From Mayamaea pseudoterrestris (lineage: Eukaryota), in contig BROI01000013.1 of NCBI GenBank assembly GCA_027923505.1, forward strand, positions 496,001-560,000: a DNA stretch of 64,000 nt, given 5' to 3'. Both the position numbers and the translations under genes were made by a program. Shown here one piece after another: positions 2,286 to 63,200 of the stretch. The notes beneath the pieces are model-generated. The model was not told the DNA's origin and ran no database searches. It was given only the letters and a program-made list of their open reading frames with translations. The stretch's first letter is position 1. Each line of letters begins with the position of its first letter.

Positions 2286-2414
2286 GCTGACGGAGCGAGA
2301 AGAAGTTGCATGACAATGAGAAGTTAGTAAGCAACAACTGGGATAATTAAACAAAAATGAGCGATGCCCGCACTGCTGCGGATCGGTTAATGTATGGCGC
2401 TGCGACATTTGCCG

Positions 2415-3342: not shown

Positions 3343-3348
3343 TTGGTG

Positions 3349-34200: not shown

Positions 34201-34333
34201 AGCATCATCGGTTTCGTCAATAGCGTCGGGCAGTCTGAGTTTGGATGTATTGAAAAATGTTGGGTGTGATCGGCGTCTGCTGAACCATGGACCGCCGGTA
34301 ACGAACCACGATGATTCAACTATGGACCGCTAA
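28202..34333 (+). CDS. ~1970-aa chromatin protein with PLU-1-like helical repeats and two PHD fingers; probable 5' exon 28202-28301, main exon 28515-34333
   Basis: PHD1 is YCICRRPFDGFMIACDSCDDWFHGPCIG...YVCIRC and PHD2 is HCLCGGPSDGRFMLCCDTCNKWFHGLCVG...WNCPVC. Repeated W..RA..A(L) helical units resemble the KDM5 PLU-1 region. A GTATGT donor (28302) and a TTTTATAG acceptor (28514) are phase compatible. Confidence 0.82.
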
Positions 34334-40700: not shown

Positions 40701-43464
40701 ATCGAACAAAATCCGAGATATACGTTAGGACTATGCTCCCCTTCACTGAAGCAAGATCCTCAACCATCGAACACAAATCGGACGAGTCTAGAGGAAGAGA
40801 GTTAAAAGCCTGCGAAGCATCGTCCAATAATGATTCAGAGCCATAGTGAATCAAAGAGATCGCCATCGCTACTCGTTCGCTTGCCGCAAATTTGGCGAAG
40901 ATTTGTTCTCTCCAAGAGGCGCTGCCCACGACGTCAGTCACAAGAATCGAAGCAACCATATCGCCACATGAGCTGCCATTGCCTTCTTTTAAAATAATCT
41001 CAATTAATTGTTTCATGTCTGCTGGGTATGGATCAAGAACAGACAGACCATCCATCTTCCCAACTGAGTAAGATCGCGTGCGTCTACCAGTACCTTCTTG
41101 ACTTGGTCCTGAGGAAATAATTATTTGCGGGTCGACTACTTTAACTCCTTTCAACATTTTTAGCAGAGTCCTTACCAAAGCACTAGGTATCGACTCAACT
41201 TCTCCATGGGTAACAATGCGCTCCAGGATGGGGCGACCTGCATCATTCCACCGAGTCAGCAACGGGGCTAACTCCTCGCCAGTCTCCTCCAACGAATCTA
41301 ACAAAACAGCAGCGGCTGTGCTCATTCCACTGGCCAATGGTAGAAAAAGCCATGCACCGCTACCCTCGTTATCGTCATGGCCCATACGTCGATAAACAGC
41401 ACTGCTCACGCACAACCTCATCAGTGCATTCCGCAACTTTTGCGGTTCCCGGGACCTCTTCAAACAAGAAGCAAGGATACTCGACAACACTTGTCCGCCC
41501 ATTTTTACCGAAACATTGGATATTTCAAGTTGGTCGCCAATTTCAACAAGATTCGACCATTTTTCCTCACTCTCAAGCCGACGAAACGTTGCGGCGAGCA
41601 AGGCCATGGCAGCCACACGCACTTGCACGTCACCGCGCTCAAGCAACACGAGACCAGGTATAACAGCGATGCTTACATCCTTCGCCTCGCCTAGAATAGA
41701 AATTGCCAGTTCGAGTAGCTTCAACACCTCCTTGTTGCTCGTCTCCGATCGGACGGCAGCTTCTAGATAAATCGCCAATCGCAAATGTTCAAGCAAATCT
41801 TTATCTGAAAGTAAATGCGCCGCAGCAACAGCATGCTCCTTGTCACAATTAGTGCTCCAGGAATGAACAATCGCTAATGCTTGTTCACTCGGTAATTCAA
41901 TTTCATGCTCGAAATCTTGCACCTCATCAATGTTCATTTCGTCCGACGCACCAACTGGCGGCAACATGCCCACCAAATCATTCGAATCCACCATTGCCGA
42001 CTCATCAAAAGCAACAATTCCGTTGAGTAAATCAATTAACTTCTGCTTGCAATCAAGCATCTTGTCGCTCATGGAGTCTATGGCATGTGCAACTCCCAGC
42101 TCACATGATACGGCGTCAATCTCATGCAACGTTTTTAACACAAGCCGCACTGGTTCCAGAGCAAGTTCGTCATTTTGAAAATACTTGCCGACAACGTTGG
42201 CGGTAACGGATGCGACCAAATGTAGCTGTCGGTCCATCCAAATGGAGCGCAGCGCCGACTCTTCCGCCAGCTCGACGATTAGACTTAATCGACCTTGATT
42301 CATGCTCATGACCACCACAGCCGCCAACAAGGGCGCAACAATAACACGTCGATCACGATGCAAGTATCCAAGCAATGACGGTAGAAATTCAAGGCCGACG
42401 AGCCTGTCAAACGTCGTCCTGGTCAAGGAACATCCCAACCACTTGTCAAGGCCCACCAACGACAGAAAGCAAGCGTCATCGACAAGCAGTTGTCGCTTGG
42501 GCGGAAGCAGAATACTTAGAATGGTCGTCAAGGCGTCCGCCTCTGTTTCCAAACCAGGCGCGGCCCCGCGAACAATCTTGGTGACGAGCAAGTCAATTGT
42601 TTCTGGCGCCAGCTCCATGTGCTCCACCATGGACGAAACGACAACGTAGCTCCAGTAGCGGCGAACTGGGTGCGAAAAGGATCCCAACAGACACGAAAAA
42701 ATGGTCCGAATGACAGCTTCCTTGTCTGCCTTGGTATCGCGGGCCAACCAGGCAAAGCCTTGCAATAGTAGTTTCATAGACCACGACAGCAAAAAATGAT
42801 CGTCCGTCTTGACTGCTTGCACAACTTGCACCAGTTTCGTCAACCACGAGGTATTCTTGAGCACATGCTGCGCCACCAAGGCGGAAGGAATCTTTTTGTT
42901 GTTTTCAACACTCACGTAGGGCCTCAACCATAGGTACGTTTGATCAGAAGCAAGGTCGACGAGCAAGAGGCAGCGATGAAAGTAGACCCACATTTCATTC
43001 TTGCCCGCATAGGGAAGGAGCGTCCAAAGTAACTCAGAACCATACTGCACGTGCAGATTGTATCGCCGCAGCATGTATTCCAGAACCTGCAGGCACTCGT
43101 CAAGTGATTCGTCCAATAGAACCGTCAACTGAAGCAAAATGGATCGAATCTGCGACGCATCGGCAGCTTCAGCACTGTTGCAAAGAACTGAAACAAGGTC
43201 ATCCAAGCCCAATTCTACCAAAGCTTCTCTACAATTTTCTTCCAATACTTTCAAAGGAACATCGGCAGCATCCCTTGCTTTGGCATGCAGCAAGGTTGGC
43301 TTGAAACGAACCGACTTGTCGGCCATGGTTTGTCCGTGCTTGACAGAGTAGTGGAGGCCGCGACCGACGGCATCCTCATGGCGCTTGCTGCTTGCAAATG
43401 ACAAGCCGGCATTCTTGGGATTGTTCAAGGCAGTCAGTTGCGACTGCAAATTAGACAAAGACAT
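37750..43464 (-). CDS. UTP10: U3 snoRNP-associated HEAT-repeat protein UTP10/HEATR1 (BAP28)
   Basis: N-terminal MSLSNLQSQL and LEYMLRRY; C-terminal BP28CT-like KLSELQLR and LWKPLNHAVL...LGEEYMVLLPECLPVLSEAMED. 1904 aa. Confidence 0.92.
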   Translation of the reverse strand: MSLSNLQSQLTALNNPKNAGLSFASSKRHEDAVGRGLHYSVKHGQTMADKSVRFKPTLLHAKARDAADVPLKVLEENCREALVELGLDDLVSVLCNSAEAADASQIRSILLQLTVLLDESLDECLQVLEYMLRRYNLHVQYGSELLWTLLPYAGKNEMWVYFHRCLLLVDLASDQTYLWLRPYVSVENNKKIPSALVAQHVLKNTSWLTKLVQVVQAVKTDDHFLLSWSMKLLLQGFAWLARDTKADKEAVIRTIFSCLLGSFSHPVRRYWSYVVVSSMVEHMELAPETIDLLVTKIVRGAAPGLETEADALTTILSILLPPKRQLLVDDACFLSLVGLDKWLGCSLTRTTFDRLVGLEFLPSLLGYLHRDRRVIVAPLLAAVVVMSMNQGRLSLIVELAEESALRSIWMDRQLHLVASVTANVVGKYFQNDELALEPVRLVLKTLHEIDAVSCELGVAHAIDSMSDKMLDCKQKLIDLLNGIVAFDESAMVDSNDLVGMLPPVGASDEMNIDEVQDFEHEIELPSEQALAIVHSWSTNCDKEHAVAAAHLLSDKDLLEHLRLAIYLEAAVRSETSNKEVLKLLELAISILGEAKDVSIAVIPGLVLLERGDVQVRVAAMALLAATFRRLESEEKWSNLVEIGDQLEISNVSVKMGGQVLSSILASCLKRSREPQKLRNALMRLCVSSAVYRRMGHDDNEGSGAWLFLPLASGMSTAAAVLLDSLEETGEELAPLLTRWNDAGRPILERIVTHGEVESIPSALVRTLLKMLKGVKVVDPQIIISSGPSQEGTGRRTRSYSVGKMDGLSVLDPYPADMKQLIEIILKEGNGSSCGDMVASILVTDVVGSASWREQIFAKFAASERVAMAISLIHYGSESLLDDASQAFNSLPLDSSDLCSMVEDLASVKGSIVLTYISDFVRSNSSRLLASRRGDELAGMLFNALKESSLTASTHDDETTPFLQQSVLLALQQILVTSPAKQKVDARRTKSWITILLSLLGASTTTDLRLVLLTKTRTRSAALSILSNFALERPGDVMPSLGQVVAATVSLACGKDGSYTQFVRQTLTYFIPLFKKIAPLEGATIERIFTAFVSASQEQSEAQHLLLYSDFVHVLVQSNLVDEVAGLICLYLAERSHSLGNQGRPSHASSIVVQVLESGPSAMQVATLLTLLEYCNEIISSLTRADSSIDDKSSKLGASVSSMVLIETATSGITRKSAISVDKEAGLQRVVNLAKFIIDTFADCLLLGGVQHYFKKTGNAAELCLKIWQQLLEVHTACRNRSDCNLDVSVQHFLDYAVESLDQSRGIIQNLLPVPIFLASVSSIIAEGRTADVRSNALHLLADRAAGFTSASPEAILFVDLVPEITGLLTSTEDHLMSPRLRESALLALDQISGMLRKASAFPEGAVQNFLNALSEVTRLLATFEDVASLDAIQVGERQLICSLALCAGSLVRSVGTASVAVLPTLVRSLVMILNCTSSYGGPSEDEVQVLRLGLIKGLVAVIESVPHFMTPHLPLILTEQAVLSKSLRTDVIEKLDPIKVTMERLDAGLAASVPCRILVPALCKAISLCSTLDGVKSVMLILEQALGEASSAEIIVQRSAVLKALTTACDVDGVFADKVLVVKVCEKVLVALVMKLSELQLRRVLVFLREWRGASETRKFAFWSFTQVLSQKLKAIFLPCLSMVWNDAIAELNNAAQAFASASTKASEAKRRRLNEELNSNYNEGSMSCIEPLLLCLEHSLRTDARGGGAWIRTDEEARYHALLSPLGNLLEARLPENYPVVPVAQSAYHQLVHGVTESSGCVMGCLTALAAAAGNEQLWKPLNHAVLEACANEHRAEVRRAGLECLLSLMRSLGEEYMVLLPECLPVLSEAMEDSTEDNAALARDIVTLAEELIGESLQESLR

Positions 43465-43589
43465 GATTGTTTGCTACCGGTAGTGTATGATGGAGGATCC
43501 AAGATGTGTAGTGTTGCCATGCCAAAGAATTAATTTGTACCGATGGCTGTCGTTCAAAACCGGAGCGACGTAAACTATCTTGGCACTGC

Positions 43590-44222
43590 ATATGGCATGA
43601 TTTTTGAATGTCCATACCTTGAGCCATGTGTATGCCCAAATCAAACCAGAATGGTGCTAACATTCTTATTTCAGGTGCGCTACAAGATGGATTGACTGGC
43701 TGGTCCCTTGGTAGACTGCAATGTAATTGGTGACAACTTGTTACCAATCTCAGCCAGCAGATGCCGTCTTTTTCAAATGCCCATACCTTGAGCCATGTGT
43801 ATGTCCAAATCAAGCCAGAATGGTGCTAACATTCTTATTTCAGGTGCGCTACAAGATGGATTGCCTGGCTGGTCCCTTGGTAGACTGCAATGATTGGTGA
43901 CAACTTGTCACCAATCTCAGCAAGCAGTCATTTATTAATGCCCATACCTTGAGCCATGTGTATGCCCAATTCAAGCCAGAGTGGTGCTAACATCCTTATT
44001 TCAGGTGCGCTACAAGATGGATTGCCTGGCTGGTCCCTTGGTAGACTGCAATGTGATTGGTGACAACTTGCTGTGGGTCTATTATGTTCTCACCTGCTCA
44101 AGGCAGGAGGAGCCATTCTGAGATAGCAGTATAAATATAAACGTCTCGTTATTTATTTGATTGGTGACAAATTGTCACCAATCTCAGCCAGCAGATGCCG
44201 TCATTTTCAAATGCCCATACCT
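43590..44222 (-). repeat. ~3.3 copies of the subfamily A 169-bp satellite in reverse orientation, interrupted by an 87-bp insert
   Basis: Reverse complement of the 2.5-3.3 kb monomers. CCATACCTTGAGCCATGTGTATG and GGTGCTAACAT..TTATTTCAGGTGCGCTACAAGATGG each occur three times. Confidence 0.93.
44071..44157. mobile_element. 87-bp non-satellite insertion flanked by a 17-bp direct repeat (possible target-site duplication)
   Basis: TGATTGGTGACAACTTG (44054-44070) and TGATTGGTGACAAATTG (44158-44174) flank unique sequence that ends in TTATTTATT. Confidence 0.5.
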
Positions 44223-47200
44223 TGACGGCATCTGCGGGCTGAGACTGGTGACAAGTTGTCACCAAATACATTGCCATCCCCTGAGACACCAGCGAAGCCT
44301 ACCACCTTGTAGCGCAGCCGGAATAATGACGTTGGCACCATTCTGGTGTATTTTGGGCACCTACAGGGCTTGCTGTAGGGGCGTTTGAATGTCATGGCAT
44401 CTGCGGGCTGAGACTGGTGACAAGTTGTCACCAAATACATTGCCATCCCCTGAGACACCAGCGAAGCCTACCATCTTGTAGCGCTGTCTGAATAATGACG
44501 TTGGCACCATTCTGGTGTATTTTGGGCACCTACAGGGCTTGCTGTAGGGGTGTTTGAATGTCACGGCATCTGCGGGCTGAGACTGGTGACAAGTTGTCAC
44601 CAAATACATTGCCATCCCCTGAGACACCAGCCAAGCCTACCATCTTGTAGCGCTGCCTGAATAATGATGTTGGCACCATTCTGGTGTATTTTGGGCACCT
44701 ACAGGGCTTGCTGTAGGGGCGTTTGAATGTCACGGCATCTGCGGGCTGAGACTGGTGACAAGTTGTCACCAAAGACATTGTCATCCCCTGAGACACCAGC
44801 CAAGCCTACCATCTTGTAGCGCAGCCTGATTAATGATGTTGGCACCATTCTGGTGTATTTTGGGCACCTACAGGGCTTGCTGTAGGGGCGTTTGAATGTC
44901 ACGGCATCTGCGGGCTGAGACTGGTGACAAGTTGTCACCAAATACATTGCCATCCCCTGAGACACCAGCCAAGCCTACCATCTTGTAGTGCAGCCTGAAT
45001 AATGATGTTGGCACCATTCTGGTGTATTTTGGGCACCTACAGGGCTTGCTGTAGGAGCGTTTGAATGTCCCGGCATCTGCGGGCTGAGACTGGTGACAAG
45101 TTGTCACCAAATACATTGCCATCCCCTGAGACACCAACCAAGCCTACCATCTAGTAACGCAGCCTGAACAATGAAGTTGGCACCATTCTGGTGTATTTTG
45201 GGCACCTACAGGGCTTGCTGTAGGGGCGTTTGAATGTCACGGCATCTGCGGGCTGAGACTGGTGACAAGTTGTCACCAAATACATTGCCATCCCCTGAGA
45301 CACCAGCCAAGCCTACCACCTTGTAGCGCTGCCTGAATAAGGACGTTGGCACCATTCTGGTGTATTTTGGGCACCTACAGGGCTTGCTGTAGGGGCGTTT
45401 GAATGTCACGGCATCTGCGGGCTGAGACTGGTGACAAGTTGTCACCAAATACATTTCCATCCCCTGAGACACCAACCAAGCCTACCATCTTGTAGCGCAG
45501 CCTGATTAATGATGTTGGCACCATTCTGGTGTATTTTGGGCACCTACAGGGCTTGCTGTAGGGGCGTTTGAATGTCACGGCATCTGCGGGCTGAGACTGG
45601 TGACAAGTTGTCACCAAATACATTGCCATCCCCTGAGACACCAGCCAAGCCTACCATCTTGTAGCGAGACTGGTGAAGTACCAAGCCCCTGAGACAGAAG
45701 TACCATTGAGCGCATTAATGATGTTGGCACCATTCTGGTGTATTTTGGGCACCTACAGGGCTTGCTGTAGGGGCGTTTGAATGTCACGGCATCTGCGGGC
45801 TGAGACTGGTGACAAGTTGTCACCAAATACATTGCCATCCCCTGAGACACCAGCCAAGCCTACCATCTTGTAGCGCAGCCTGAATAATGATGTTGGCACC
45901 ATTCTGGTGTATTTTGGGCACCTACAGGGCTTCCTGTAGGGGCAGACTGGTGACAAGTTGTCACCAAATACATTGCCATCCCCTGAGACACCAGCCAAGC
46001 CTACCATCTTGTAGTGCAGCCTGAATAATGATGTTGGCACCATTCTGGTGTATTTTGGGCACCTACAGGGCTTGCTGTAGGGGCGTTTGAATGTCACGGC
46101 ATCTGCGGGCTGAGACTGGTGACAAGTTGTCACCAAATACATTGCCATCCCCTGAGACACCAGCCAAGCCTAGCATCTTGTAGCGCTGCCTGAATAATGA
46201 GGTTGGCGCCATTTGGGTGTATTTTTGGGCACCTACAGGGCTTGCTGTAGGGGCATTTGAATGTCACGGCATCTGCGGGCTGAGACTGGTGACAAGTTGT
46301 CACCAAATACATTGCCATCCCCTGAGACACCAGCCAAGCCTACCATCTTGTAGCGCAGCCTGAATAATGATGTTGGCACCATTCTGGTGTATTTTGGGCA
46401 CCTACAGGGCTTGCTGTAGGGGCGTTTGAATGTCACGGCATCTGCGGGCTGAGACTGGTGACAAGTTGTCACCAAATACATTGCCATCCCCTGAGACACC
46501 AGCCAAGCCTACCATCTTGTAGCGCAGCCTGAATAATGATGTTGGCACCATTCTGGTGTATTTTGGGCACCTACAGGGCTTGCTGTAGGGGCGTTTGAAT
46601 GTCACGGCATCTGCGGGCTGAGACTGGTGACAAGTTGTCACCAAATCCATTGCCATCCCCTGAGACACCAGCCAAGCCTACCATCTTGTAGCGCAGCCTG
46701 AATAATGAGGTTGGCACCATTCTGGTGTATTTTGGGCACCTACAGGGCTTGCTGTAGGGGCGTTTGAATGTCACGGCATCTGCGGGCTGAGACTGGTGAC
46801 AAGTTGTCACCAAATGCATTGCCATCCCCTGAGACACCAGCCAAGCCTACCATCTTGTAGCGCAGCCTGAATAATGACGTTGGCACCATTCTGGTGTATT
46901 TTGGGCACCTACAGGGCTTGCTGTAGGGGCGTTTGAATGTCATGGCATCTGCGGGCTGAGACTGGTGACAAGTTGTCACCAAATACATTGCCATCCCCTG
47001 AGACACCAGCCAAGCCTACCATCTTGTAGCGCAGCCTGAATAATGACGTTGGCACCATTCTGGTGTATTTTAGGCACCTACAGGGCCTGCTGTAGGGGCG
47101 TTTGAATGTCACGGCATCTGCGGGCTGAGACTGGTGACAAGTTGTCACCAAATACATTGCCATCCCCTGAGACACCAGCCAAGCCTACCATCTTGTAGCG

Positions 47201-50200
47201 CAGCCTGAATAATGAGGTTGGCACCATTCTGGTGTGGTGTATTTTGGGCACCTACAGGGCTTGCTGTAGGGGCGTTTGAATGTCACGGCATCTGCGGGCT
47301 GAGACTGGTGACAAGTTGTCACCAAATACATTGCCATCCCCTGAGACACCAGCCAAGCCTACCATCTTGTAGCGCAGCCTGAACAATGAAGTTTGCACCA
47401 TTTGGGTGTATTTTGGGCACCTACAGGGCTTGCTGTAGGGGCGTTTGAATGTCACGGCATCTGCGGGCTGAGACTGGTGACAAGTTGTCACCAAATACAT
47501 TGCCATCCCCTGAGACACCAGCCAAGCCTACCATCTTGTAGCGCAGCCTGAATAATGATGTTGGCACCATTCTGGTGTATTTTGGGCACCTAGAGGGCTT
47601 GCTGTAGGGGCGTTTGAATGTCACGGCATCTGCGGGCTGAGACTGGTGACAAGTTGTCACCAAATACATTGCCATCCCCTGAGACACCAGCCAAGCCTAC
47701 CATCTTGTAGCGCAGCCTGAATAATGATGTTGGCACCATTCTGGTGTATTTTGGGCACCTACAGGGCTTGCTGTAGGGGCGTTTGAATGTCACGGCATCT
47801 GCGGGCTGAGACTGGTGACAAGTTGTCACCAAATGCATTGCCATCCCCTGAGACACCAGCCAAGCCTACCATCTTGTAGCGCAGCCTGAATAATGAAGTT
47901 GGCACCATTCTGGTGTATTTTGGGCACCTACAGGGCTTGCTGTAGGGGCGTTTGAATGTCACGGCATCTGCGGGCTGAGACTGGTGACAAGTTGTCACCA
48001 AATACATTGCCATCCCCTGAGACACCAGCCAAGCCTACCATCTTGTAGCGCAGCCTGAATAATGACGTTGGCACCATTCTGGTGTATTTTGGGCACCTAC
48101 AGGGCTTGCTGTAGGGGCGTTTGAATGTCATGGCATCTGCGGGCTGAGACTGGTGACAAGTTGTCACCAAATACATTGCCATCCCCTGAGACACCAGCCA
48201 AGCCTACCATCTTGTAGCGCTGTCTGAATAATGACGTTGGCACCATTCTGGTGTATTTTGGGCACCTACAGGGATTGCTGTAGGGGCGTTTAAATGTCAC
48301 GGCATCTGCGGGCTGAGACTGTTGACAAGTTGTCACCAAATACATTGCCATCCCCTGAGACACCAGCCAAGCCTACCATCTTGTAGCGCTGCCTGAATAA
48401 TGATGTTGGCACCACTCTGGTGTATTTTGGGCACCTACAGGGCTTGCTGTAGGGGTGTTTGAATGTCACGGCATCTGCGGGCTGAGACTGGTGACAAGTT
48501 GTCACCAAATACATTGCCATCCCCTGAGACACCAGCCAAGCCTACCATCTTGTAGCACTGGTACAATTCACCAAATTTCCCCTGAGACCAGTCCTTGTAG
48601 CGCAGCCTGATTAATGATGTTGGCACCATTCTGGTGTATTTTGGGCACCTACAGGGCTTGCTGTAGGGGCGTTTGAATGTCACGGCATCTGCGGGCTGAG
48701 ACTGGTGACAAGTTGTCACCAAATACATTGCCATCCCCTGAGACACCAGCCAAGCCTACCATCTTGTAGCGCAGCCTGAATAATGAGGTTGGCACCATTC
48801 TGGTGTATTTTGGGCACCTACAGGGCTTGCTGTAGGGGCGTTTGAATGTCACGGCATCTGTGGGCTGAGACTGGTGACAAGTTGTCACCAAATACATTGC
48901 CATCCCCTGAGACACCAGCCAAGCCTACCATCTTGTAGCGCAGCCTGAATAATGATGATGGCACCATTCTGGTGTATTTTGGGCACCTACAGGGCTTGCT
49001 GTAGGGGCGTTTGAATGTCACGGCATCTGCGGGCTGAGACTGGTGACAAGTTGTCACCAAATACATTGCCATCCCCTGAGACACCAGCCAAGCCTACCAT
49101 CTTGTAGCGCAGCCTGAATAATGAGGTTGGCACCATTCTGGTGTATTTTGGGCACCTACAGGGCTTGCTGTAGGGGCGTTTGAATGTCACGGCATCTGCG
49201 GGCTGAGACTGGTGACAAGTTGTCACCAAATACATTGCCATCCCCTGAGACACCAGCCAAGCCTACCATCTTGTAGCGCAGCCTGAATAATGAGGTTGGC
49301 ACCATTCTGGTGTATTTTGGGCACCTACAGGGCTTGCTGTAGGGGCGTTTGAATGTCATGGCATCTGCGGGCTGAGACTGGTGACAAGTTGTCACCAAAT
49401 ACATTGCCATCCCCTGAGACACCAGCCAAGCCTACCATCTTGTAGCGCAGCCTGAATAATGACGTTGGCACCATTCTGGTGTATTTTGGGCACCTACAGG
49501 GCTTGCTGTAGGTGCGTTTGAATGTCACGGCATCTGCGGGCTGAGACTGGTGACAAGTTGTCACCAAATACATTGCCATCCCCTGAGACACCAGCCAAGC
49601 CTACCATCTTGTAGCGCAGCCTGAATAATGAGGTTGGCACCATTCTGGTGTATTTTGGGCACCTACAGGGCTTGCTGTAGGGGCGTTTGAATGTCACGGC
49701 ATCTGCGGGCTGAGACTGGTGAAAAGTTGTCACCAAATACATTGCCATCCCCTGAGACACCAACCAAGCCTACCATCTTGTAGCGCAGCCTGAATAATGA
49801 GGTTGGCACCATTCTGGTGTATTTTGGGCACCTACAGGGCTTGCTGTAGGGGCGTTTGAATGTCACGGCATCTGCGGGCTGAGACTGGTGACAAGTTGTC
49901 ACCAAATACATTGCCATCCCCTGAGACACCAGCCAAGCCTACCATCTTGTAGCGCAGCCTGAATAATGAGGTTGGCACCATTCTGGTGTATTTTGGGCAC
50001 CTACAGGGCTTGCTGTAGGGGCGTTTGAATGTCACGGCATCTGTGCGGCTGAGACTGGTGACAAGTTGTCACCAAATACATTGCCATCCCCTGAGACACC
50101 AGCCAAGCCTACCATCTTGTAGCGCAGCCTGAATAATGACGTTGGCACCATTCTGGTGTATTTTGGGCACCTACAGGGCTTGCTGTAGGGGCGTTTGAAT

Positions 50201-53200
50201 GTCACGGCATCTGCGGGCTGAGACTGGTGACAAGTTGTCACCAAATACATTGCCATCCCCTGAGACACCAGCCAAGCCTACCATCTTGTAGCGCAGCCTG
50301 AATAATGAGGTTGGCACCATTCTGGTGTATTTTGGGCACCTACAGGGCTTGCTGTAGGGCGTTTGAATGTCAGGCATCTGCGGGCTGAGACTGGTGACAA
50401 GTTGTCACCAAATACATTGCCATCCCCTGAGACACCAGCCAAGCCTACCATCTTGTAGCGCAGCCTGAATAATGATGTTGGCACCATTCTGGTGTATTTT
50501 GGGCACCTACAGGGCTTGCTGTAGGGGCGTTTGAATGTCACGGCATCTGCGGGCTGAGACTGGTGACAAGTTGTCACCAAATACATTGCCATCCCCTGAG
50601 ACACCAACCAAGCCTACCATCTTGTAGCGCAGCCTGAACAATGACGTTGGCACCATTCTGGTGTATTTTGGGCACCTACAGGGCTTGCTGTAGGGGCGTT
50701 TGAATGTCACGGCATCTGCGGGCTGAGACTGGTGACAAGTTGTCACCAAATACATTGCCATCCCCTGAGACACCAGCCAAGCCTACCATCTTGTAGCGCA
50801 GCCTGAACAATGAAGTTTGCACCATTTGGGTGTATTTTGGGCACCTACAGGGCTTGCTGTAGGGGCGTTTGAATGTCACGGCATCTGCGGGCTGAGACTG
50901 GTGACAAGTTGTCACCAAATACATTGCCATCCCCTGAGACACCAACCAAGCCTACCACCTTGTAGCGCAGCCGGAGTAATGACGTTGGCACCATTCTGGT
51001 GTATTTTGGGCACCTACAGGGCTTGCTGTAGGGGCGTTTGAATGTCACGGCATCTGCGGGCTGAGACTGGTGACAAGTTGTCACCAAATACATTGCCATC
51101 CCCTGAAACACCAGCCAGGCTTACCATCTTGTAGCTCAGCCTGAATAATGACGTTAACACCATTCTGGTGTATTTTGTGCACCTACAGGGCTCGCTGTAG
51201 GGCGTTTGAATGTCACGGCAGCTGCGGGCTGAGACTGGTGACAAGTTGTCACCAAATACATTGCCATCCCCTGAGACACCAGCCAAGCCTACCATCTTGT
51301 AGCGCTGCCTGAATAATGAGGTTGGCACCATTCTGGTGTATTTTGGGCACCTACAGGGGGCTTGCTGTAGGGGCGTTTGAATGTCACGGCATCTGCGGGC
51401 TGAGACTGGTGACAAGTTGTCACCAAATACATTGCCATCCCCTGAGACACCAGCCAAGCCTACCATCTTGTAGCGCAGCCTGAATAATGATGTTGGCACC
51501 ATTCTGGTGTATTTTGGGCACCTACAGGGCTTGCTGTAGGGGCGTTTGAATGTCATGGCATCTGCGGGCTGAGACTGGTGACAAGTTGTCACCAAATACA
51601 TTGCCATCCCCTGAGACACCAGCCAAGCCTACCATCTTGTAGCGCAGCCTGAATAATGACGTTGGCACCATTCTGGTGTATTTTGGGCACCTACAGGGCT
51701 TGCTGTAGGGGCGTTTGAATGTCACGGCATCTGCGGGCTGAGACTGGTGACAAGTTGTCACCAAATACATTGCCATCCCCTGAGACACCAGCCAAGCCTA
51801 CCATCTTGTAGCGCAGCCTGAATAATGATGTTGGCACCATTCTGGTGTATTTGGGCACCTACAGGGCTTGCTGTAGGGGTGTTTGAATGTCACGGCATCT
51901 GCGGGCTGAGACTGGTGACAAGTTGTCACCAAATACATTGCCATCCCCTGAGACACCAGCCAAGCCTACCATCTTGTAGCGCAGCCTGAATAATGATGTT
52001 GGCACCATTTTGGTGTATTTTGGGCACCTACAGGGCTTGCTGTAGGGGCGTTTGAATGTCATGGCATCTGCGGGCTGAGACTGGTGACAAGTTGTCACCA
52101 AATACATTGCCATCCCCTGAGACACCAGCCAAGCCTACCATCTTGTAGCGCAGCCTGAATAATGAGGTTGGCACCATTCTGGTGTATTTTGGGCACCTAC
52201 AGGGCTTGCTGTAGGGGCGTTTGAATGTCACGGCATCTGCGGGCTGAGACTGGTGACAAGTTGTCACCAAATACATTGCCATCCCCTGAGACACCAACCA
52301 AGCCTACCATCTTGTAGCGCAGCCTGAATAATGAGGTTGGCACCATTCTAGTGTATTTCGGGCACCTACAGGGCTTGCTGTAGGGGCGTTTGAATGTCAC
52401 GGCATCTGCGGGCTGAGACTGGTGACAAGTTGTCACCAAATACATTGCCATCCCCTGAGACACCAGCCAAGCCTACCATCTTGTAGCGCTGCCTGAATAA
52501 TGACGTTGGCAAAATTCTGGTGTATTTTGGGCACCTACAGGGCTTGCTGTAGGGGCGTTTGAATGTCACGGCATCTGCGGGCTGAGACTGGTGACAAGTT
52601 GTCACCAAATACATTGCCATCCCCTGAGACACCAGCCAAGCCTACCATCTTGTAGCGCAGCCTGAATAATGAGGTTGGCACCATTCTGGTGTGGTGTATT
52701 TTGGGCACCTACAGGGCTTGCTGTAGGGGCGTTTGAATGTCACGGCATCTGCGGGCTGAGACTGGTGACAAGTTGTCACCAAATACATTGCCATCCCCTG
52801 AGACACCAGCCAAGCCTACCATCTTGTAGCGCAGCCTGAATAATGACGTTGGCACCATTCTGGTGTATTTTGGGCACCTACAGGGCCTGCTGTAGGGGCG
52901 TTTGAATGTCACGGCATCTGCAGGCTGAGACTGGTGACAAGTTGTCACCAAATACATTGCCATCCCCTGAGACACCAGCCAAGCCTACCATCTTGTAGCG
53001 CTGCCTGAATAATGAGGTTGGCACCATTCTGGTGTGGTGTATTTTGGGCACCTACAGGGCTTGCTGTAGGGGCGTTTGAATGTCACGGCATCTGCGGGCT
53101 GAGACTGGTGACAAGTTGTCACCAAATACATTGCCATCCCCTGAGACACCAGCCAAGCCTACCATCTTGTAGCGCAGCCTGAAAAATGACGTTGGCACCA

Positions 53201-56200
53201 TTCTGGTGTATTTTTGGATGCCTATAGGGCTTGCTGTAGGTGCGTTGAATGTAACGGCATCTGCGGGCTGAGACTGGTGACAAGTTGTCACCAAATACAT
53301 TGCCATCCCCTGAGACACCAGCCAAGCCTACCATCTTGTAGCGCAGCCTGAATAATGAGGTTGGCACCATTCTGGTGTATTTTGGGCACCTACAGGGCTT
53401 GCTGTAGGGGCGTTTGAATGTCACGGCATCTGCGGGCTGAGACTGGTGACAAGTTGTCACCAAATACATTGCCATCCCCTGAGACACCAGCCAAGCCTAC
53501 CATCTTGTAGCGCAGCCTGAATAATGACGTTGGCACCATTCTGGTGTATTTTGGGCACCTACAGGGCTTGCTGTAGGGGCGTTGAATGTCACGGCATCTG
53601 CGGGCTGAGACTGGTGACAAGTTGTCACCAAATACATTGCCATCCCCTGAGACACCAGCCAAGCCTACCATCTTGTAGCGCTGCCTGAATAATGAGGTTG
53701 GCACCATTCTGGTGTGGTGTATTTTGGGCACCTACAGGGCTTGCTGTAGGGGCGTTTGAATGTCACGGCATCTGCGGGCTGAGACTGGTGACAAGTTGTC
53801 ACCAAATACATTGCCATCCCCTGAGACACCAGCCAAGCCTACCATCTTGTAGCGCAGCCTGAATAATGATGCTGGCACCATTCTGGTGTATTTTGGGCAC
53901 CCACAGGGCTTGCTGTAGGGGCGTTTGAATGTCACGGCATCTGCGGGCTGAGACTGGTGACAAGTTGTCACCAAATACATTGCCATCCCCTGAGACACCA
54001 GCCAAGCCTACCATCTTGTAGCGCAGCCTGAATAATGACGTTGGCACCATTCTAGTGTATTTCGGGCACCTACAGGGCTTGCTGTAGGAGCATTGAATGT
54101 CACGGCATCTGCGGGCTGAGACTGGTGACAAGTTGTCACCAAATACATTGCCATCCCCTGAGACACCAGCCAACCTACCATCTTGTACGCACCTGAACAA
54201 TGGTTGGCACCATTCTGGTGTATTTTGGGCACCTACAGGCTTGCTGTAGGGGCGTTTGAATGTCACAGCACCTGCGGGCTGAGACTGGTGACAATTGTCA
54301 CCAAATACATTGCCATCCCCTGAGACACCAACCAAACCTACCACCTTGTAGCTCCTGCGAATAATGACGTTGGCACCATTCTGGTGTATTTTGGGCACCT
54401 ACAGGCTTGCTGTGGTTTGACTATCTCACGACATCTGCGGGCTGAGACTGGTGACAAGTTGTCACCAAAACATTGCCATCCCCTGAGACACCACCAAGCC
54501 TACCATCTTGTAGCGCACCTGAATAATGATGCTGGCACCATTCTGTGTATTTTGGTCACCAAATACATTGCCATCCCCTGAGACACCAGCCAAGCCTACC
54601 ATCTTGTAGCGCAGCCTGAATAATGAGGTTGGCACCATTCTGGTGTATTTTGGGCACCTACAGGGCTTGCTGTAGGGCGTTTGAATGTCAGGCATCTGCG
54701 GGCTGAGACTGGTGACAAGTTGTCACCAAATACATTGCCATCCCCTGAGACACCAGCCAAGCCTACCATCTTGTAGCGCAGCCTGAATAATGATGTTGGC
54801 ACCATTCTGGTGTATTTTGGGCACCTACAGGGCTTGCTGTAGGGGCGTTTGAATGTCACGGCATCTGCGGGCTGAGACTGGTGACAAGTTGTCACCAAAT
54901 ACATTGCCATCCCCTGAGACACCAACCAAGCCTACCATCTTGTAGCGCAGCCTGAACAATGACGTTGGCACCATTCTGGTGTATTTTGGGCACCTACAGG
55001 GCTTGCTGTAGGGGCGTTTGAATGTCACGGCATCTGCGGGCTGAGACTGGTGACAAGTTGTCACCAAATACATTGCCATCCCCTGAGACACCAGCCAAGC
55101 CTACCATCTTGTAGCGCAGCCTGAACAATGAAGTTTGCACCATTTGGGTGTATTTTGGGCACCTACAGGGCTTGCTGTAGGGGCGTTTGAATGTCACGGC
55201 ATCTGCGGGCTGAGACTGGTGACAAGTTGTCACCAAATACATTGCCATCCCCTGAGACACCAACCAAGCCTACCACCTTGTAGCGCAGCCGGAGTAATGA
55301 CGTTGGCACCATTCTGGTGTATTTTGGGCACCTACAGGGCTTGCTGTAGGGGCGTTTGAATGTCACGGCATCTGCGGGCTGAGACTGGTGACAAGTTGTC
55401 ACCAAATACATTGCCATCCCCTGAAACACCAGCCAGGCTTACCATCTTGTAGCTCAGCCTGAATAATGACGTTAACACCATTCTGGTGTATTTTGTGCAC
55501 CTACAGGGCTCGCTGTAGGGCGTTTGAATGTCACGGCAGCTGCGGGCTGAGACTGGTGACAAGTTGTCACCAAATACATTGCCATCCCCTGAGACACCAG
55601 CCAAGCCTACCATCTTGTAGCGCTGCCTGAATAATGAGGTTGGCACCATTCTGGTGTATTTTGGGCACCTACAGGGGGCTTGCTGTAGGGGCGTTTGAAT
55701 GTCACGGCATCTGCGGGCTGAGACTGGTGACAAGTTGTCACCAAATACATTGCCATCCCCTGAGACACCAGCCAAGCCTACCATCTTGTAGCGCAGCCTG
55801 AATAATGATGTTGGCACCATTCTGGTGTATTTTGGGCACCTACAGGGCTTGCTGTAGGGGCGTTTGAATGTCATGGCATCTGCGGGCTGAGACTGGTGAC
55901 AAGTTGTCACCAAATACATTGCCATCCCCTGAGACACCAGCCAAGCCTACCATCTTGTAGCGCAGCCTGAATAATGACGTTGGCACCATTCTGGTGTATT
56001 TTGGGCACCTACAGGGCTTGCTGTAGGGGCGTTTGAATGTCACGGCATCTGCGGGCTGAGACTGGTGACAAGTTGTCACCAAATACATTGCCATCCCCTG
56101 AGACACCAGCCAAGCCTACCATCTTGTAGCGCAGCCTGAATAATGATGTTGGCACCATTCTGGTGTATTTGGGCACCTACAGGGCTTGCTGTAGGGGTGT

Positions 56201-59200
56201 TTGAATGTCACGGCATCTGCGGGCTGAGACTGGTGACAAGTTGTCACCAAATACATTGCCATCCCCTGAGACACCAGCCAAGCCTACCATCTTGTAGCGC
56301 AGCCTGAATAATGATGTTGGCACCATTTTGGTGTATTTTGGGCACCTACAGGGCTTGCTGTAGGGGCGTTTGAATGTCATGGCATCTGCGGGCTGAGACT
56401 GGTGACAAGTTGTCACCAAATACATTGCCATCCCCTGAGACACCAGCCAAGCCTACCATCTTGTAGCGCAGCCTGAATAATGAGGTTGGCACCATTCTGG
56501 TGTATTTTGGGCACCTACAGGGCTTGCTGTAGGGGCGTTTGAATGTCACGGCATCTGCGGGCTGAGACTGGTGACAAGTTGTCACCAAATACATTGCCAT
56601 CCCCTGAGACACCAACCAAGCCTACCATCTTGTAGCGCAGCCTGAATAATGAGGTTGGCACCATTCTAGTGTATTTCGGGCACCTACAGGGCTTGCTGTA
56701 GGGGCGTTTGAATGTCACGGCATCTGCGGGCTGAGACTGGTGACAAGTTGTCACCAAATACATTGCCATCCCCTGAGACACCAGCCAAGCCTACCATCTT
56801 GTAGCGCTGCCTGAATAATGACGTTGGCAAAATTCTGGTGTATTTTGGGCACCTACAGGGCTTGCTGTAGGGGCGTTTGAATGTCACGGCATCTGCGGGC
56901 TGAGACTGGTGACAAGTTGTCACCAAATACATTGCCATCCCCTGAGACACCAGCCAAGCCTACCATCTTGTAGCGCAGCCTGAATAATGAGGTTGGCACC
57001 ATTCTGGTGTGGTGTATTTTGGGCACCTACAGGGCTTGCTGTAGGGGCGTTTGAATGTCACGGCATCTGCGGGCTGAGACTGGTGACAAGTTGTCACCAA
57101 ATACATTGCCATCCCCTGAGACACCAGCCAAGCCTACCATCTTGTAGCGCAGCCTGAATAATGACGTTGGCACCATTCTGGTGTATTTTGGGCACCTACA
57201 GGGCCTGCTGTAGGGGCGTTTGAATGTCACGGCATCTGCAGGCTGAGACTGGTGACAAGTTGTCACCAAATACATTGCCATCCCCTGAGACACCAGCCAA
57301 GCCTACCATCTTGTAGCGCTGCCTGAATAATGAGGTTGGCACCATTCTGGTGTGGTGTATTTTGGGCACCTACAGGGCTTGCTGTAGGGGCGTTTGAATG
57401 TCACGGCATCTGCGGGCTGAGACTGGTGACAAGTTGTCACCAAATACATTGCCATCCCCTGAGACACCAGCCAAGCCTACCATCTTGTAGCGCAGCCTGA
57501 AAAATGACGTTGGCACCATTCTGGTGTATTTTTGGATGCCTATAGGGCTTGCTGTAGGTGCGTTGAATGTAACGGCATCTGCGGGCTGAGACTGGTGACA
57601 AGTTGTCACCAAATACATTGCCATCCCCTGAGACACCAGCCAAGCCTACCATCTTGTAGCGCAGCCTGAATAATGAGGTTGGCACCATTCTGGTGTATTT
57701 TGGGCACCTACAGGGCTTGCTGTAGGGGCGTTTGAATGTCACGGCATCTGCGGGCTGAGACTGGTGACAAGTTGTCACCAAATACATTGCCATCCCCTGA
57801 GACACCAGCCAAGCCTACCATCTTGTAGCGCAGCCTGAATAATGACGTTGGCACCATTCTGGTGTATTTTGGGCACCTACAGGGCTTGCTGTAGGGGCGT
57901 TGAATGTCACGGCATCTGCGGGCTGAGACTGGTGACAAGTTGTCACCAAATACATTGCCATCCCCTGAGACACCAGCCAAGCCTACCATCTTGTAGCGCT
58001 GCCTGAATAATGAGGTTGGCACCATTCTGGTGTGGTGTATTTTGGGCACCTACAGGGCTTGCTGTAGGGGCGTTTGAATGTCACGGCATCTGCGGGCTGA
58101 GACTGGTGACAAGTTGTCACCAAATACATTGCCATCCCCTGAGACACCAGCCAAGCCTACCATCTTGTAGCGCAGCCTGAATAATGATGCTGGCACCATT
58201 CTGGTGTATTTTGGGCACCCACAGGGCTTGCTGTAGGGGCGTTTGAATGTCACGGCATCTGCGGGCTGAGACTGGTGACAAGTTGTCACCAAATACATTG
58301 CCATCCCCTGAGACACCAGCCAAGCCTACCATCTTGTAGCGCAGCCTGAATAATGACGTTGGCACCATTCTAGTGTATTTCGGGCACCTACAGGGCTTGC
58401 TGTAGGAGCATTGAATGTCACGGCATCTGCGGGCTGAGACTGGTGACAAGTTGTCACCAAATACATTGCCATCCCCTGAGACACCAGCCAACCTACCATC
58501 TTGTACGCACCTGAACAATGGTTGGCACCATTCTGGTGTATTTTGGGCACCTACAGGCTTGCTGTAGGGGCGTTTGAATGTCACAGCACCTGCGGGCTGA
58601 GACTGGTGACAATTGTCACCAAATACATTGCCATCCCCTGAGACACCAACCAAACCTACCACCTTGTAGCTCCTGCGAATAATGACGTTGGCACCATTCT
58701 GGTGTATTTTGGGCACCTACAGGCTTGCTGTGGTTTGACTATCTCACGACATCTGCGGGCTGAGACTGGTGACAAGTTGTCACCAAAACATTGCCATCCC
58801 CTGAGACACCACCAAGCCTACCATCTTGTAGCGCACCTGAATAATGATGCTGGCACCATTCTGTGTATTTTGCCACGGGCTGAGACTGAGGGTGACAAGT
58901 TGTCACCAAATACATTGCCATCCCCTGAGACACCAGCCAAGCCCCTCTTGTGGCGCGACAATGGTTACACCATTCTGTGTATTTTGGGCACCTACACTTG
59001 CTGTAGGGGCATTTGACCGGCATCGCGGGCTGAGACTTACAAGTTGTCACCAATTGCCATCCCCGAGAAACCAGCCAAGCCAACCATCTTGTAGCGCAGC
59101 CTGAATAATAATGTTGGCACCATTGGTGTATTTTGGGCACCTACAGGGCTTGCTGTAGGGGCGTTTGAATGTCTCAGCATCTGCGGCTGAGACTGTGACA

Positions 59201-60200
59201 ATTGTCACCAAATACATTCCATCCCCGAGACACCCCAAGCCTTCCTTACGCACCTGAAAATACGTTCATTCTGGTATTTTGGGCACCCGGCTTGCTGTTG
59301 GCGTTTGAATCATGGCATCTGCGGGCTGAGACTGGTGACAAGTTGTCACCAAATACTTGCCATCCCCTGAGACACCAGCCAACCACTTGTAGCGCTGCCT
59401 GAATAAGGACGTTGGCACCATTCTGTTTTTTGAGGCACCTACGGGCTTGCTGTAGGGGCGTTTGAATGTCACGGCATCTGCGGGCTGAGACTGGTGACAA
59501 GTTGTCACCAAATACATTGCCATCCCCTGAGACACCAACCAAGGCTGCCATCTTTAGCAGCCTGAATAATGGGTTGGCACCATTCTGGTGTATTTTGGGC
59601 ACCTACAGCTTGCTGTAGGGCGTTTGAATGTACGGCATCTGCAGGTGAGACTTACAATTGTCACCAAATACTTCCCGAACACCACCAACCTACCTCTTGT
59701 AGCGCAGCCTGAATAATGATGTTAACAATTCTGGTGTATTTTGAGCACCTAAGGGCTTGCGTAGGGGCATTTGGTGTGGCATCTGCGGGCTGAGACTGGT
59801 GACATTGTCCAAATACCCCCCTGAGACACCACCAACCTCCTTCCTGGACCTTGTGCTCAGCCCTGGCACATTTGGTTATTTGGGCACCTACAGCTTGCTG
59901 TAGGGGGTTTGATTCATGGCATCTGCGGCTGAGACTGGTGACAAGTTGTCACCAAATACATTGCCATCCCCTGAGACAAGCCAAACCTACCATCTTGTAG
60001 CGTACCTGAATAATATGGCTTGCACCTACAGGGCTTGCTGTAGGGGCGTTTGATTCACACATCTGCGCTGACTTTTTGTATTTGGGGCCCCGGGCTTGCT
60101 GTAGGGGCGTTTGAATTCAACGACATCTGCGGGCTGAGACCATTCACCAAATACATTGCCATCCCCTGAGACACCAACCAAACCTAGTCTTGCACCTTCA
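44223..60200 (+). repeat. Satellite DNA array: ~94 head-to-tail 169-bp monomers (subfamily B)
   Basis: Period is 169 (e.g. palindrome at 44246 and 44415). Typical monomer: CACGGCATCTGCGGGCTGAGACTGGTGACAAGTTGTCACCAAATACATTGCCATCCCCTGAGACACCAGCCAAGCCTACCATCTTGTAGCGCAGCCTGAATAATGATGTTGGCACCATTCTGGTGTATTTTGGGCACCTACAGGGCTTGCTGTAGGGGCGTTTGAATGT (88/169 GC by hand count). Confidence 0.99.
50237..58872 (+). repeat. Apparently exact 4318-bp tandem duplication inside the satellite (50237-54554 = 54555-58872)
   Basis: Rare variants and ORF-track entries recur at +4318 (e.g. 50278/54596, 51014/55332, 53799/58117). The junction ...GTATTTTG|GTCACC at 54554/54555 breaks monomer phase. Confidence 0.93.
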
Positions 60201-63200
60201 CTAATGAACGCCCGCAAACCAACTATAACAACACGCGAAATCCACCATCATTCAAATGCTACCTTTGCCATCAACCGTATCATCGAAGCGCCGACTGCTT
60301 TGAACGAGTCGAAAACGCCCACCGTCGTCCTCGAGGATGGAACACTCGCTTGTCAATAGAAGCTCGTCGTCAATTGGAAGATGAAGAAGCACGAGAGCAA
60401 CAAGAGCGTGGTTTAGAACGACCAAGAGAGCGTCCTCGCAATTCAAATCGACAGCAAGATCGTCGTCTTCCACAAGATGATCAGCAAGAAGACCGTTGTT
60501 ATCGACAGAATCGCAACAACGAGCGCGCAAGAGACCAACCAAGAAACAATGATTATCGTCGCCGAGATCAACAAGAGCAACCGCGTCAACTTGATCATCA
60601 AAACCATCGTCAAGAGCCTCATCCGCGAACCATCATGCGTGAACAAGTGCCCCGTCAAGCGCCATTACTACTTGAACAAGGACTTGCAGCAGTACACGAA
60701 GCCCTTCAGTTGACTCAGCGATCGCATCGTTCCTCTTCGCAACGTTCCTCTTCAAGCCGCCGGTATCCTTCTACAAACTCAAGGAGCGAATTTGCCTTCA
60801 TACATGCCGACTTAGTTGATGAAACTTATCCAGCACTCCCTACTCGCACTCCTGCAGCTCCAACACCGTCGCCTTTATATCCACAAACCAATTGGCGCGG
60901 TCTACAGCCACATCAGATTAAAGACTATTCATCGGAAGACGATTCATCAATCGAGCAGCCTCCAGCACCACCAACAACTCGAACAAAACGCGCAAGACCA
61001 ATGTCAAGCTCCACCAACAAGAAGCAAGCCGTCGAATTGGTGCCTTTAACAAAGTCGTCCACAACGAGTGAGTCACCAAAGCCAAAGCCAAATCTTCCAT
61101 CGTCAAATCTCAATGGACGCAGTTGGGCATCCATATGCGGCGACCCAAGCACAAGTGATGAAGAAGAAAGCGACTTTGAAGATGAATTTGTCAACAGCAA
61201 GACTCCAACCGAGCAAGAACGGAAACACTTCAGCACTTTAATTCAAAACATTGAAACACTTGAGCAAACGAAGCAAGAAGACAGGAAGGGTCAACCATTC
61301 AACGAACAAGACGAGCCCAGTAAACCAGAGCAACAAGGGATCTCATCAATTGAAGAGCAAGCAAACAACCTCAACGACTCCTACCACGTCTACGACGCTA
61401 CACAAAGCACCAATAACGTCACAACTAGCAGCAACACAATTGAAACCACCAATCTCGAACCAACAGCCACAAACGCCAACGAATGCGATACACATGAGCG
61501 CACCGACAACGTCACTACTAGCAGCACCGACAAAGATTCAACTCCAACAACAAGTCCTCCAATCGAATTGAAAGAAGAAGAAAGTGTAGAAGAGCTGGTA
61601 GCGACAAGCTTTGCGCAATGGCGAGGAGACTGGCTACCCAAAGACTTCCTTACAGCAGACGAGCTAAAAGAAGTCGAAAAATTGTATCCAACCTTTGCTC
61701 CAAGAATTCCAAACAACATTCCGCCACAAGCCAACTCGAGTGATCTACCGCCATTCCACGTTTTGCAAAGCGTCCTGTTCATCAATCCTCCACTGTACGA
61801 GCTATCAGACGCCATAAAAGTGATGTTTGCAGATCTACAAGAGTTCTTTCTTGAGCACATAGCCATGCCACACGCCTTTACGCATCAAGAAGCAATTGAC
61901 TCAACGCGAGACCGCTACTACCAATACACTGGTCTTCGAGTCTGGAATACAGAGCGAGTCGAAATCATCATGAGCAATCCTGGCGACGAAGAAACCAATT
62001 CAGACGACGCAACTTACGATTCTGATGCATACCCAAGCAGTCAAAGTTACGGATCAGACTCCTTCACTTACGAAGGCTATCAAGCTTTTCTTCAAGCATG
62101 GGATCACCGCAATCAAGCGCCTGAGCATGTCGTTTCTCGAGCGCGCTACGAAACCACCATCCAGCAAATAAAGAAAGATGAGCAAGACATCGAGACAAAC
62201 CCTGCAAGCGCCGCACGACTGTGCATGCTAGAACGTTTCAGCCAAAGGCGTTTCCTCAAGGATCTCATCTTCTGGTTCAAAGAAATCAATGAAGAAGACG
62301 AAGAAGCACTGTTTGACGAACGTTTAAAGGTTGTCATCGATCATGCAATTGCCAAGGAAGTCAAAAGACGAGCACTCGAAGGAACATTGCGAACGCGCAG
62401 CATACTAGAAGAAGACCTCTGCAACGTCGGCTTGGAATTCAGCAAAGACTTAACGACTTTCAACTACCTCGACCAATTTCCAGAAAGCGAGAGAGAAGCA
62501 GAACGACAGGAACTACTAGACCTTCTTGCAGAACGCGAGGCAAGAGACGCACGCGAAGCAGCAGAGCAGCGCGCACGCAGATACCAGCCTCCAGCTCGCA
62601 ATTCAAATCAACTGCAACATGAAAGCCCAAATCCATTCAATGCATTGAGATACAACGTAAGCGCCAATGCCTACGCGGTTCGAAGAAACAACAACAACAA
62701 CAACGAATTCGCCCTTGCAACTATCCATGAATCCATTACGTGTCCAACCAACTTGGATATACTGAAGCATCCCGAAATCTTCATTGGCGATACTGCAGCA
62801 ACCGTCGACTGCACACCTCATCCAGAAGGCCTATTCGATGCCCGCCAGATAAGGAACGAAGGCATTACAATGGGAAATCAAACAGTTGCAGACATTCAAA
62901 CCATGGCAAAACTACGAGTCGACGCATGCGATCGATTTGGCAATCCTCTCTATCAAGGAGTCCTCAACAACATTGCTTACGCGCCCGACTGCGCCTTCAA
63001 TCTGTTCAGCATCACTCAACGTTTAGCGACAGGATGGAACCTCCGCAGCGGCAACAAGAAGATTTGGTTGGAGAAAGAAAACCAACACTCCATCGTCTTT
63101 GATTTGCTGATTCTTACCAAGCGAGGTCATCTTTACTGCATGTACTTGAGACGAGTCATTCCAATGCCATTAGTTCAAGCGCCTCGTAACGAGTTCGCCA

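Follow-up and report, generated by a model that had tools for sequence, protein, structure and literature searches.

Does an array of nucleosome-sized repeats in a diatom genome mark a centromere, or is it satellite DNA of another kind? The array in question consists of 169-bp units at 44225-60186 of a 64-kb window of the Mayamaea pseudoterrestris genome (contig BROI01000013.1, positions 496,001 to 560,000). The window is the whole stretch of DNA that was analysed, and all positions below refer to it. A first, sequence-only reading had described a candidate centromere or pericentromere, namely about 94 highly homogeneous units at about 52% guanine plus cytosine (GC) over 16 kb, between a gene-dense arm and a Copia element. 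Our proposal is that a raphid-type pennate diatom has a very abundant, probably methylated satellite DNA family with a 169-bp unit, and that the array is one of its borders. We regard this explanation as reasonably likely.

The array itself is real. Tandem Repeats Finder calls a period of 169 at 44225-54560 (60.8 copies, 88% matches) and again at 54555-58872 (25.6 copies, 95% matches), with a degenerate continuation to about 60014. The monomer at 56000-56168, used as a BLAST query against the window, gave 112 matches. Units follow each other head to tail and without spacers over 44225-58868, with 90.6-100% identity to this monomer, and beyond 58868 they fall to 80-94% identity, up to 60186. 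In total the assembled array is 15,962 bp long, which divided by 169 gives 94.4 units. Its GC content is 0.521, and the 169-bp majority unit has 5 CpG and 52.7% GC, above the 49% GC of the neighbouring genes. Unit number, period and composition are thus as first read. The stretch at 58873-60186 is not homogeneous; 9.1% of its alignment columns are gaps.

The array has the properties of satellite DNA: head-to-tail units of one length, high copy number at more than one locus (in samples X1 and X2, below), no coding function and concerted evolution. The mean pairwise difference among 57 non-redundant full-length units is 5.98 of 169 positions (3.5%; about 96.5% alike), against 17-20% to a variant type of the same family, as concerted evolution predicts. 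We did not find a higher-order repeat; over lags 1-30 the mean difference stays between 4.9 and 6.0, and no lag stands out. The array is non-coding, in that its period is not a multiple of 3. Its four open reading frames (ORFs) of 199-204 aa are two pairs of exact duplicates, and the one of each pair that was scanned (204 and 199 aa) gave no Pfam match above the cut-off. An Rfam search of 43400-46000 (E up to 1) assigned no family; a match to a microRNA family (19.7 bits, E = 0.83) was rejected, the gathering score being 73.

Public sequencing samples indicate the size of the family. Six public runs from two studies contain the locus or part of it, five of them with 0.44-0.84 of the sampled words; all are contigs. 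Four samples (X1, X2, X4 and X5) were compared over 41800-45100, which covers flank, inverted variant units and five main units, using records that fit at 90% or more. In X1, 72,376 of 555,133 records fit (13%), and depth is 95-97 over the flank, 3.2e4-1.15e5 over the variant units and 1.06e6-8.09e6 over the main units. The corresponding values for X2 are 13,646 of 182,933 records (7.5%), 25.8, 3.1e3-8.4e3 and 1.07e5-9.0e5. Summed word depth over the main units is therefore about 10^4 times that of the single-copy flank in both samples. Of the records, 15,614 in X1 and 3,875 in X2 reach a likeness of at least 99%. The depths correspond to about 38,000-190,000 units (6-33 Mb) in X1 and about 16,000-83,000 units (3-14 Mb) in X2, where each range depends on whether contigs that fit several units are counted once or at every unit. 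As a rough order of magnitude, the family amounts to megabases, or 10^4-10^5 copies, in two independent sample sets. On the same order-of-magnitude scale, the 94 units at this locus are well under 1% of the 169-bp family.

Loose contig ends join units to at least four different non-satellite sequences, with 380 further loose ends beyond those displayed. One of these junctions is common to X4 and X5, at identical monomer phase, and a third subfamily variant occurs among the loose ends of X1 and X2. These loose ends, with their other flanks, show that the family also occurs outside this locus.

The repeats differ from their neighbours in CpG content. The observed/expected ratio of CpG is 0.357 in the main array, effectively the ratio of one 169-bp unit, and 0.228 and 0.323 in two short arrays of the variant type. 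The genic arm and the copia element have ratios of 1.056 and 1.131, while an unrelated 182-bp tandem repeat at 3351-3737 is also depleted (0.255). The ratio for GpC is about 1.2-1.4 in all regions, repeats and genes alike, and 1.18-1.33 across the main array, the variant arrays, the genic arm and the copia element. Variability per site and unit is 0.10 at the 10 CpG positions and 0.0116 at the other 159, a difference of about 9 times, and 33 of the 57 changes at CpG sites are C>T or G>A. Because the tandem repeats are CpG-depleted while the genes and the retroelement are not, we infer that the repeats, unlike their neighbours, have been CpG-methylated over the long term, which is the simplest reading of these ratios.

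The best-conserved part of the unit is a block of about 42 nt that is common to both subfamilies with just two differences. It contains a palindrome of 9+1+9 nt, TGGTGACAAGTTGTCACCA, present once per monomer (for example at 44246-44264). The palindrome is exact at 85 of the 98 sites found in the window when up to 4 mismatches were allowed, and its centre base varies freely. At the site at 2435, in the most diverged unit, there is one change on each arm and 9 of 9 pairs are kept. The palindrome is also the sole helix retained in the centroid fold of the monomer. A second hairpin segment was rejected as a case of covariation; it forms a 7-bp stem in the main type and a 5-bp stem at shifted positions in the variant. 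A metagenome scan with a 29-nt core pattern gave no matches. Matches to a 20-nt palindrome query were rejected as well: the 38 metagenome loci have a single match each, none is monomer-like beyond about 40 nt, and they appear to be chance or unrelated sequences.

A diverged subfamily, overlooked in the sequence-only reading, is present in two short arrays beside gene starts (Table 1). It is 74-86% identical to the main monomer in BLAST and has 17-20% mismatches to the main type in the alignment. The array at 2421-3342 contains a patch of about 130 bp (2810-2940) of the main type: windows of 40 bp at 2810-2900 are 97-100% main-type, and the windows flanking them are 90-97% variant-type. Judged from the sequence, this patch would reflect a conversion-like exchange between loci 41 kb apart. 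At the other short array, an inverted fragment (44161-44220) follows an insert of 90 bp and then meets the first main unit head to head. The arms of this inversion junction (44161-44203 and 44223-44265) are 43 nt each, 93% complementary and 19 nt apart. An X2 contig of 6,914 letters, with a depth of 25.8, spans from UTP10 into the variant array, up to 43636. The proximal junction between gene and array is thus independently supported. Outside the arrays of its own family, the monomer resembles nothing in the window by BLAST, the copia element included, and no match lies beyond 60186.

We also noted that the insert at 44071-44160 occurs in an X4 contig, which matches from 44071 on and has 255 unlike letters to the left. 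This different left sequence indicates that the insert exists in another context, that is, another locus or allele. The 182-bp repeat at 3351-3737 (2.1 copies, 89% matches) lies directly after the short array at 2421-3342, so that two distinct tandem repeat families, of 169 bp and 182 bp, stand side by side between two genes at 2421-3737.

How far the assembly of the array can be relied on is a separate matter. The two blocks listed as exact copies in Table 1 are identical at 4,318 of 4,318 bases, and 25.5 of the 94 units are thus duplicates. The join between the copies is out of monomer phase and has zero microhomology. Compared at an offset of 4318, the array is identical over a run of precisely 4,318 positions; after this one, its longest exact repeat measures 296 bp. 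In the last 0.5 kb of the block, 4.1% gap columns stand against 3.5% mismatches relative to the consensus, whereas the truly diverged subfamily has 17-20% mismatches and just 1.65% gaps. Garbled, deletion-rich patches at 45667-45715 and 48557-48593 resemble units with about half of their bases gone. The low sequence quality is confined to the repeat, because the copia ORF right beside its edge is uninterrupted. We consider it likely that the array is an unpolished long-read consensus with a duplicated overlap. The duplicated block and the deletion-ridden edge and patches mean that the assembled length is not trustworthy. Without the duplicate block the array is 11,644 bp long, and neither this value nor 15,962 bp is a measured array length, whichever cause holds. 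The size of 16 kb in the sequence-only reading is therefore a product of the assembly. The join of the array to the copia element may be approximate.

Table 1. Features of the 64-kb window, in order of position
Feature	Position	Strand	Remarks
Gene-arm domains and genes	1-43.5 kb		HMG box, His_Phos, HlyIII, PLU-1/PHD, CNNM, UTP10 (BP28CT)
His_Phos ORF	1614-2414	-	Short variant array directly upstream
Short array, diverged subfamily, about 5.5 units	2421-3342	+	Directly upstream of His_Phos ORF; Tandem Repeats Finder, BLAST
UTP10/HEATR1-like gene	37750-43473	-	BP28CT 1.4e-10; U3snoRNP10 1.9e-07; last gene before the repeats
Short array, diverged subfamily, 2.9 units	43600-44070	- (inverted)	About 135 bp from UTP10 start codon
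Non-satellite insert, about 90 bp	44071-44160	.	Interrupts inverted units; no monomer match in BLAST
Head-to-head inversion junction	44161-44265	.	Inverted variant fragment meets first main-type unit
Main array, non-duplicated part	44225-50236	+	Units 95.9-100% identical to reference; 1.4% mismatch and 0.02% gap columns
Exact block, copy 1	50237-54554	+	4,318 bp; final 0.5 kb or so (54061-54554) indel-rich
Exact block, copy 2	54555-58872	+	4,318 bp; out of monomer phase with copy 1
Distal array edge, deletion-ridden	58873-60186	+	Units 96-165 bp; 9.1% gap columns, 3.4% mismatches
Ty1/copia-type retroelement ORF, 5'-truncated	60188-63976	+	1,262 aa, open; starts at gag zinc knuckle

Both flanks are of the kind first read from the sequence. 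The organism is a pennate diatom, and the gene-dense arm on one side carries ordinary eukaryotic genes, UTP10 among them, over 1-43.5 kb. The start codon of UTP10 is at about 43465 on the minus strand. The best named relatives of the CNNM-type ORF are in Amphora and Nitzschia, at 46-48% identity, and environmental relatives reach 75-78%. An ORF of 1,969 aa at 28424-34333 has PLU-1 and PHD domains and is KDM5/JARID1-like. We did not find a match to JmjC, JmjN or ARID in its stop-to-stop frame; these domains may be encoded by a different exon, or the gene may lack them. The arm also contains a 135-bp tandem duplication at 22000-22257 (1.9 copies, 87% matches by Tandem Repeats Finder).

On the other side, the Copia element corresponds to an ORF that begins at 60188. 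Its zinc knuckle, CX2CX4HX4C, was read directly from the sequence, and Pfam zf-CCHC gives only E = 0.18. Pol_BBD scores 27-28.8 bits, just above the cut-off of 27. There are 20 longer homologues with 27-38% identity, and 17 of the 20 carry PF07727, the family of copia-type reverse transcriptases; PF14223, PF13976, PF22936 or PF00098 is present in some as well. Based on the zinc knuckle, Pol_BBD and the homologues with PF07727, we assign the ORF to the Ty1/copia type, in which a gag zinc knuckle is followed by the protease region and then by integrase ahead of an RVT_2-type reverse transcriptase. The window contains no long terminal repeat and no gag N-terminus of this element, whose 5' truncation falls exactly at the array edge; its reverse transcriptase would lie beyond the window end. 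Between the zinc knuckle and the Pol_BBD/protease region there is a low-complexity, charged stretch of about 800 aa without a Pfam match (60188-62780). Such a stretch seems unusually long for copia elements.

Taking the observations on the repeats together, we propose that arrays of the family would be kept alike by unequal exchange and gene conversion, of which the main-type patch in the variant array 41 kb away may be a trace. The arrays would have carried CpG methylation for a long time, in other words would form constitutive heterochromatin. The conserved palindrome is a putative protein-binding or recombination-prone site, and the assembled 16 kb may be a collapsed, partly mis-built stub of a longer array. 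The sequence-only reading had offered heterochromatin as an alternative to a centromere, and this half of it gains support from a family that is multi-locus and very abundant, with a signature of CpG decay that has no counterpart in the neighbours. It had also named arrays at only one locus as an outcome that would speak against it; the loose ends that lead to other flanks and the abundance in two samples indicate otherwise. The large blocks may be pericentromeric, interstitial or subtelomeric; in the window, which belongs to a contig of 922,795 bp, there is no run of two or more TTAGGG/CCCTAA units. None of the papers listed by a ranked, non-exhaustive literature search describes a family of satellite DNA from diatoms. 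As far as the literature was searched, a very abundant 169-bp satellite family is new for diatoms.

Several points weigh against this explanation. Summed contig depth is not equal to copy number and may include other organisms, so that the unit estimates are good to an order of magnitude only. X4 and X5 are labelled as the same organism as X2 and match the flanking gene at 0-0.3% difference, yet only 41 of 63,006 and 18 of 51,723 records fit, respectively. Over both, flank depth is 2-6.6 and main-unit depth about 0-99; the satellite reaches no more than about 1-20 times the depth of the flank, against about 10^4 times in X1 and X2. Either X4 and X5 are libraries of a different type, or the abundance of the family differs more than 1000-fold between samples. 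The CpG ratio of the array counts, as said, for a single unit. The single-strand DNA fold of the whole monomer is no better than that of shuffled sequences (z = -1.0; 38 of 200 as good). Finally, a very recent blunt duplication together with decaying edge units is a possible biological alternative to assembly faults.

The array might instead be a functional centromere satellite, in which case each chromosome would have one large array with CENH3 nucleosomes, on which the kinetochore is built. The palindrome would then act like a CENP-B box or form a cruciform, and copia elements would be inserted into the arrays or lie beside them. This agrees with the nucleosome-sized unit, the high homogeneity and very high abundance, the conserved dyad with its one compensated double change, the presence of the family at more than one locus and the retroelement that adjoins the array. 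In Phytophthora sojae, which is also a stramenopile, CENP-A regions are enriched in a copia-like element according to the accessible part of its centromere study (PMC7082073). However, the only experimentally supported diatom centromeres are, in the available portions of two reports, short, low in GC and not satellite-based (10.1101/096016; 10.1101/2021.11.10.468027). At 52.7% GC, the unit lies above the 49% of the neighbouring genes. A higher-order repeat, a frequent though not obligatory feature of centromere satellites, is lacking among lags 1-30. Short arrays of the family are found beside gene starts, and the start of UTP10, an essential-type gene, is about 135 bp away from the block. A low-GC block of the Phaeodactylum type is absent from the window: 152 of 63,901 windows of 100 bp have at most 32% GC, in seven patches of 106-150 bp that are all intergenic, none of them in or next to the array, and the minimum GC over 500 bp is 0.406. 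We hold a kinetochore-building satellite to be doubtful. The more general proposal of regional satellite-based centromeres, in which CENH3 would bind blocks of chromosome size built from a GC-neutral 169-bp unit that carries a conserved palindromic box, is likewise tentative and, on these data, unlikely. A block of non-core heterochromatin is more likely than the CENH3-binding core itself, and we give a pericentromeric position somewhat more credence than a CENH3-binding repeat.

An origin from a transposon is a further alternative. In brief, a MITE-like (miniature inverted-repeat transposable element) or other mobile unit would seed short arrays near genes, at least one of which expanded, and the palindrome would be a pair of terminal inverted repeats that abut. 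The 64 kb do contain three separate arrays of the family, of which two are short and adjoin the 5' ends of genes, and the unit, when read from the palindrome centre, begins and ends with 9-nt inverted termini. Yet BLAST found no solitary unit in the window, and the ends of the array at 2421-3342 fall at arbitrary points of the monomer and show neither inverted termini nor target duplications. Just one base separates the palindrome arms, whereas the target duplications of DNA transposons are 2-9 bp. There is no similarity to the adjacent copia element, and the Rfam search indicates no small-RNA origin. We judge this origin to be improbable. Least credible is the view that mis-assembly has inflated a short local minisatellite to 16 kb, so that the array would for the most part be an artefact. 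The out-of-phase join of the two exact 4,318-bp copies and the deletion-ridden patches and edge would be expected in that case, but the monomer is extremely frequent in independent short-read contigs from two studies. The assembly contains, if anything, too little of the repeat.

A very abundant satellite with a border of this kind can be compared with several known systems. Unit sizes of well-known satellites are 171 bp for alpha satellite, 178 bp in Arabidopsis and 155 bp for CentO of rice. The family resembles such centromeric and pericentromeric satellites of plants and animals in its near-nucleosome unit, its homogeneous head-to-tail arrangement and very high copy number, as well as in the retroelement at its border, the inversion junctions and the short conserved dyad in the unit. 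It differs from them in the lack of a higher-order repeat, in being GC-rich relative to the genome instead of AT-rich and in having genes right up to one side; moreover, the described centromeres of the host lineage are not satellite-based, and the present family is known from sequence alone. The 1.688/359-bp satellite of Drosophila forms large heterochromatic blocks as well as short euchromatic arrays near genes. The likeness lies in a homogeneous major array with diverged short arrays beside genes and exchange between them. Sequence and lineage are unrelated, and a regulatory or small-RNA role is not part of the likeness.

Phaeodactylum tricornutum and Fistulifera solaris are likewise pennate diatoms. 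In the accessible parts of the respective reports, the centromeres of P. tricornutum are defined by chromatin immunoprecipitation (ChIP) sequencing and low GC (10.1101/096016), and those of F. solaris are predicted from low GC and tested by episome transformation, the best-performing fragments being 1.4-2 kb long with 36-42% GC (10.1101/2021.11.10.468027). The prediction method uses 100-bp windows with at most 32% GC, and the centromeres as described there are without highly repeated elements; a retrotransposon is found near some predicted centromeres of P. tricornutum (10.1101/096016; 10.1101/2021.11.10.468027), a point of likeness to the present locus. In contrast, we find here a 169-bp satellite with 52% GC and no low-GC block of more than 150 bp in 64 kb. 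The centromeres of P. sojae are described, in the portion available, as clusters of copia-like transposons (CoLT) of hundreds of kb with no satellite (PMC7082073). P. sojae and this diatom are both stramenopiles with an element of the Ty1/copia type at a candidate heterochromatic region, but here a single truncated copia stands beside a satellite. A 2026 preprint presents a centromere atlas for 325 species; neither "stramenopil-" nor "Bacillariophy-" appears in its accessible text, which reports the centromeres of all 3 protists and all 4 algae as cryptic (10.64898/2026.09.17.752431).

The 169-bp repeat may form a tenth or more of a diatom genome, as a large and mostly unassembled compartment. 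Such a compartment would affect estimates of genome size and the quality of assemblies. Provided that X4 and X5 were made from DNA, it would also be a case of extreme copy-number polymorphism. The monomer would be a ready probe, by fluorescence in situ hybridisation, CENH3 ChIP and 5-methylcytosine detection, for variation of centromere architecture among diatoms, and the family would be relevant to the design of diatom artificial chromosomes. Should the satellite prove to be centromeric, unlike the short AT-rich centromeres of Phaeodactylum, the type of centromere would switch between diatom lineages.

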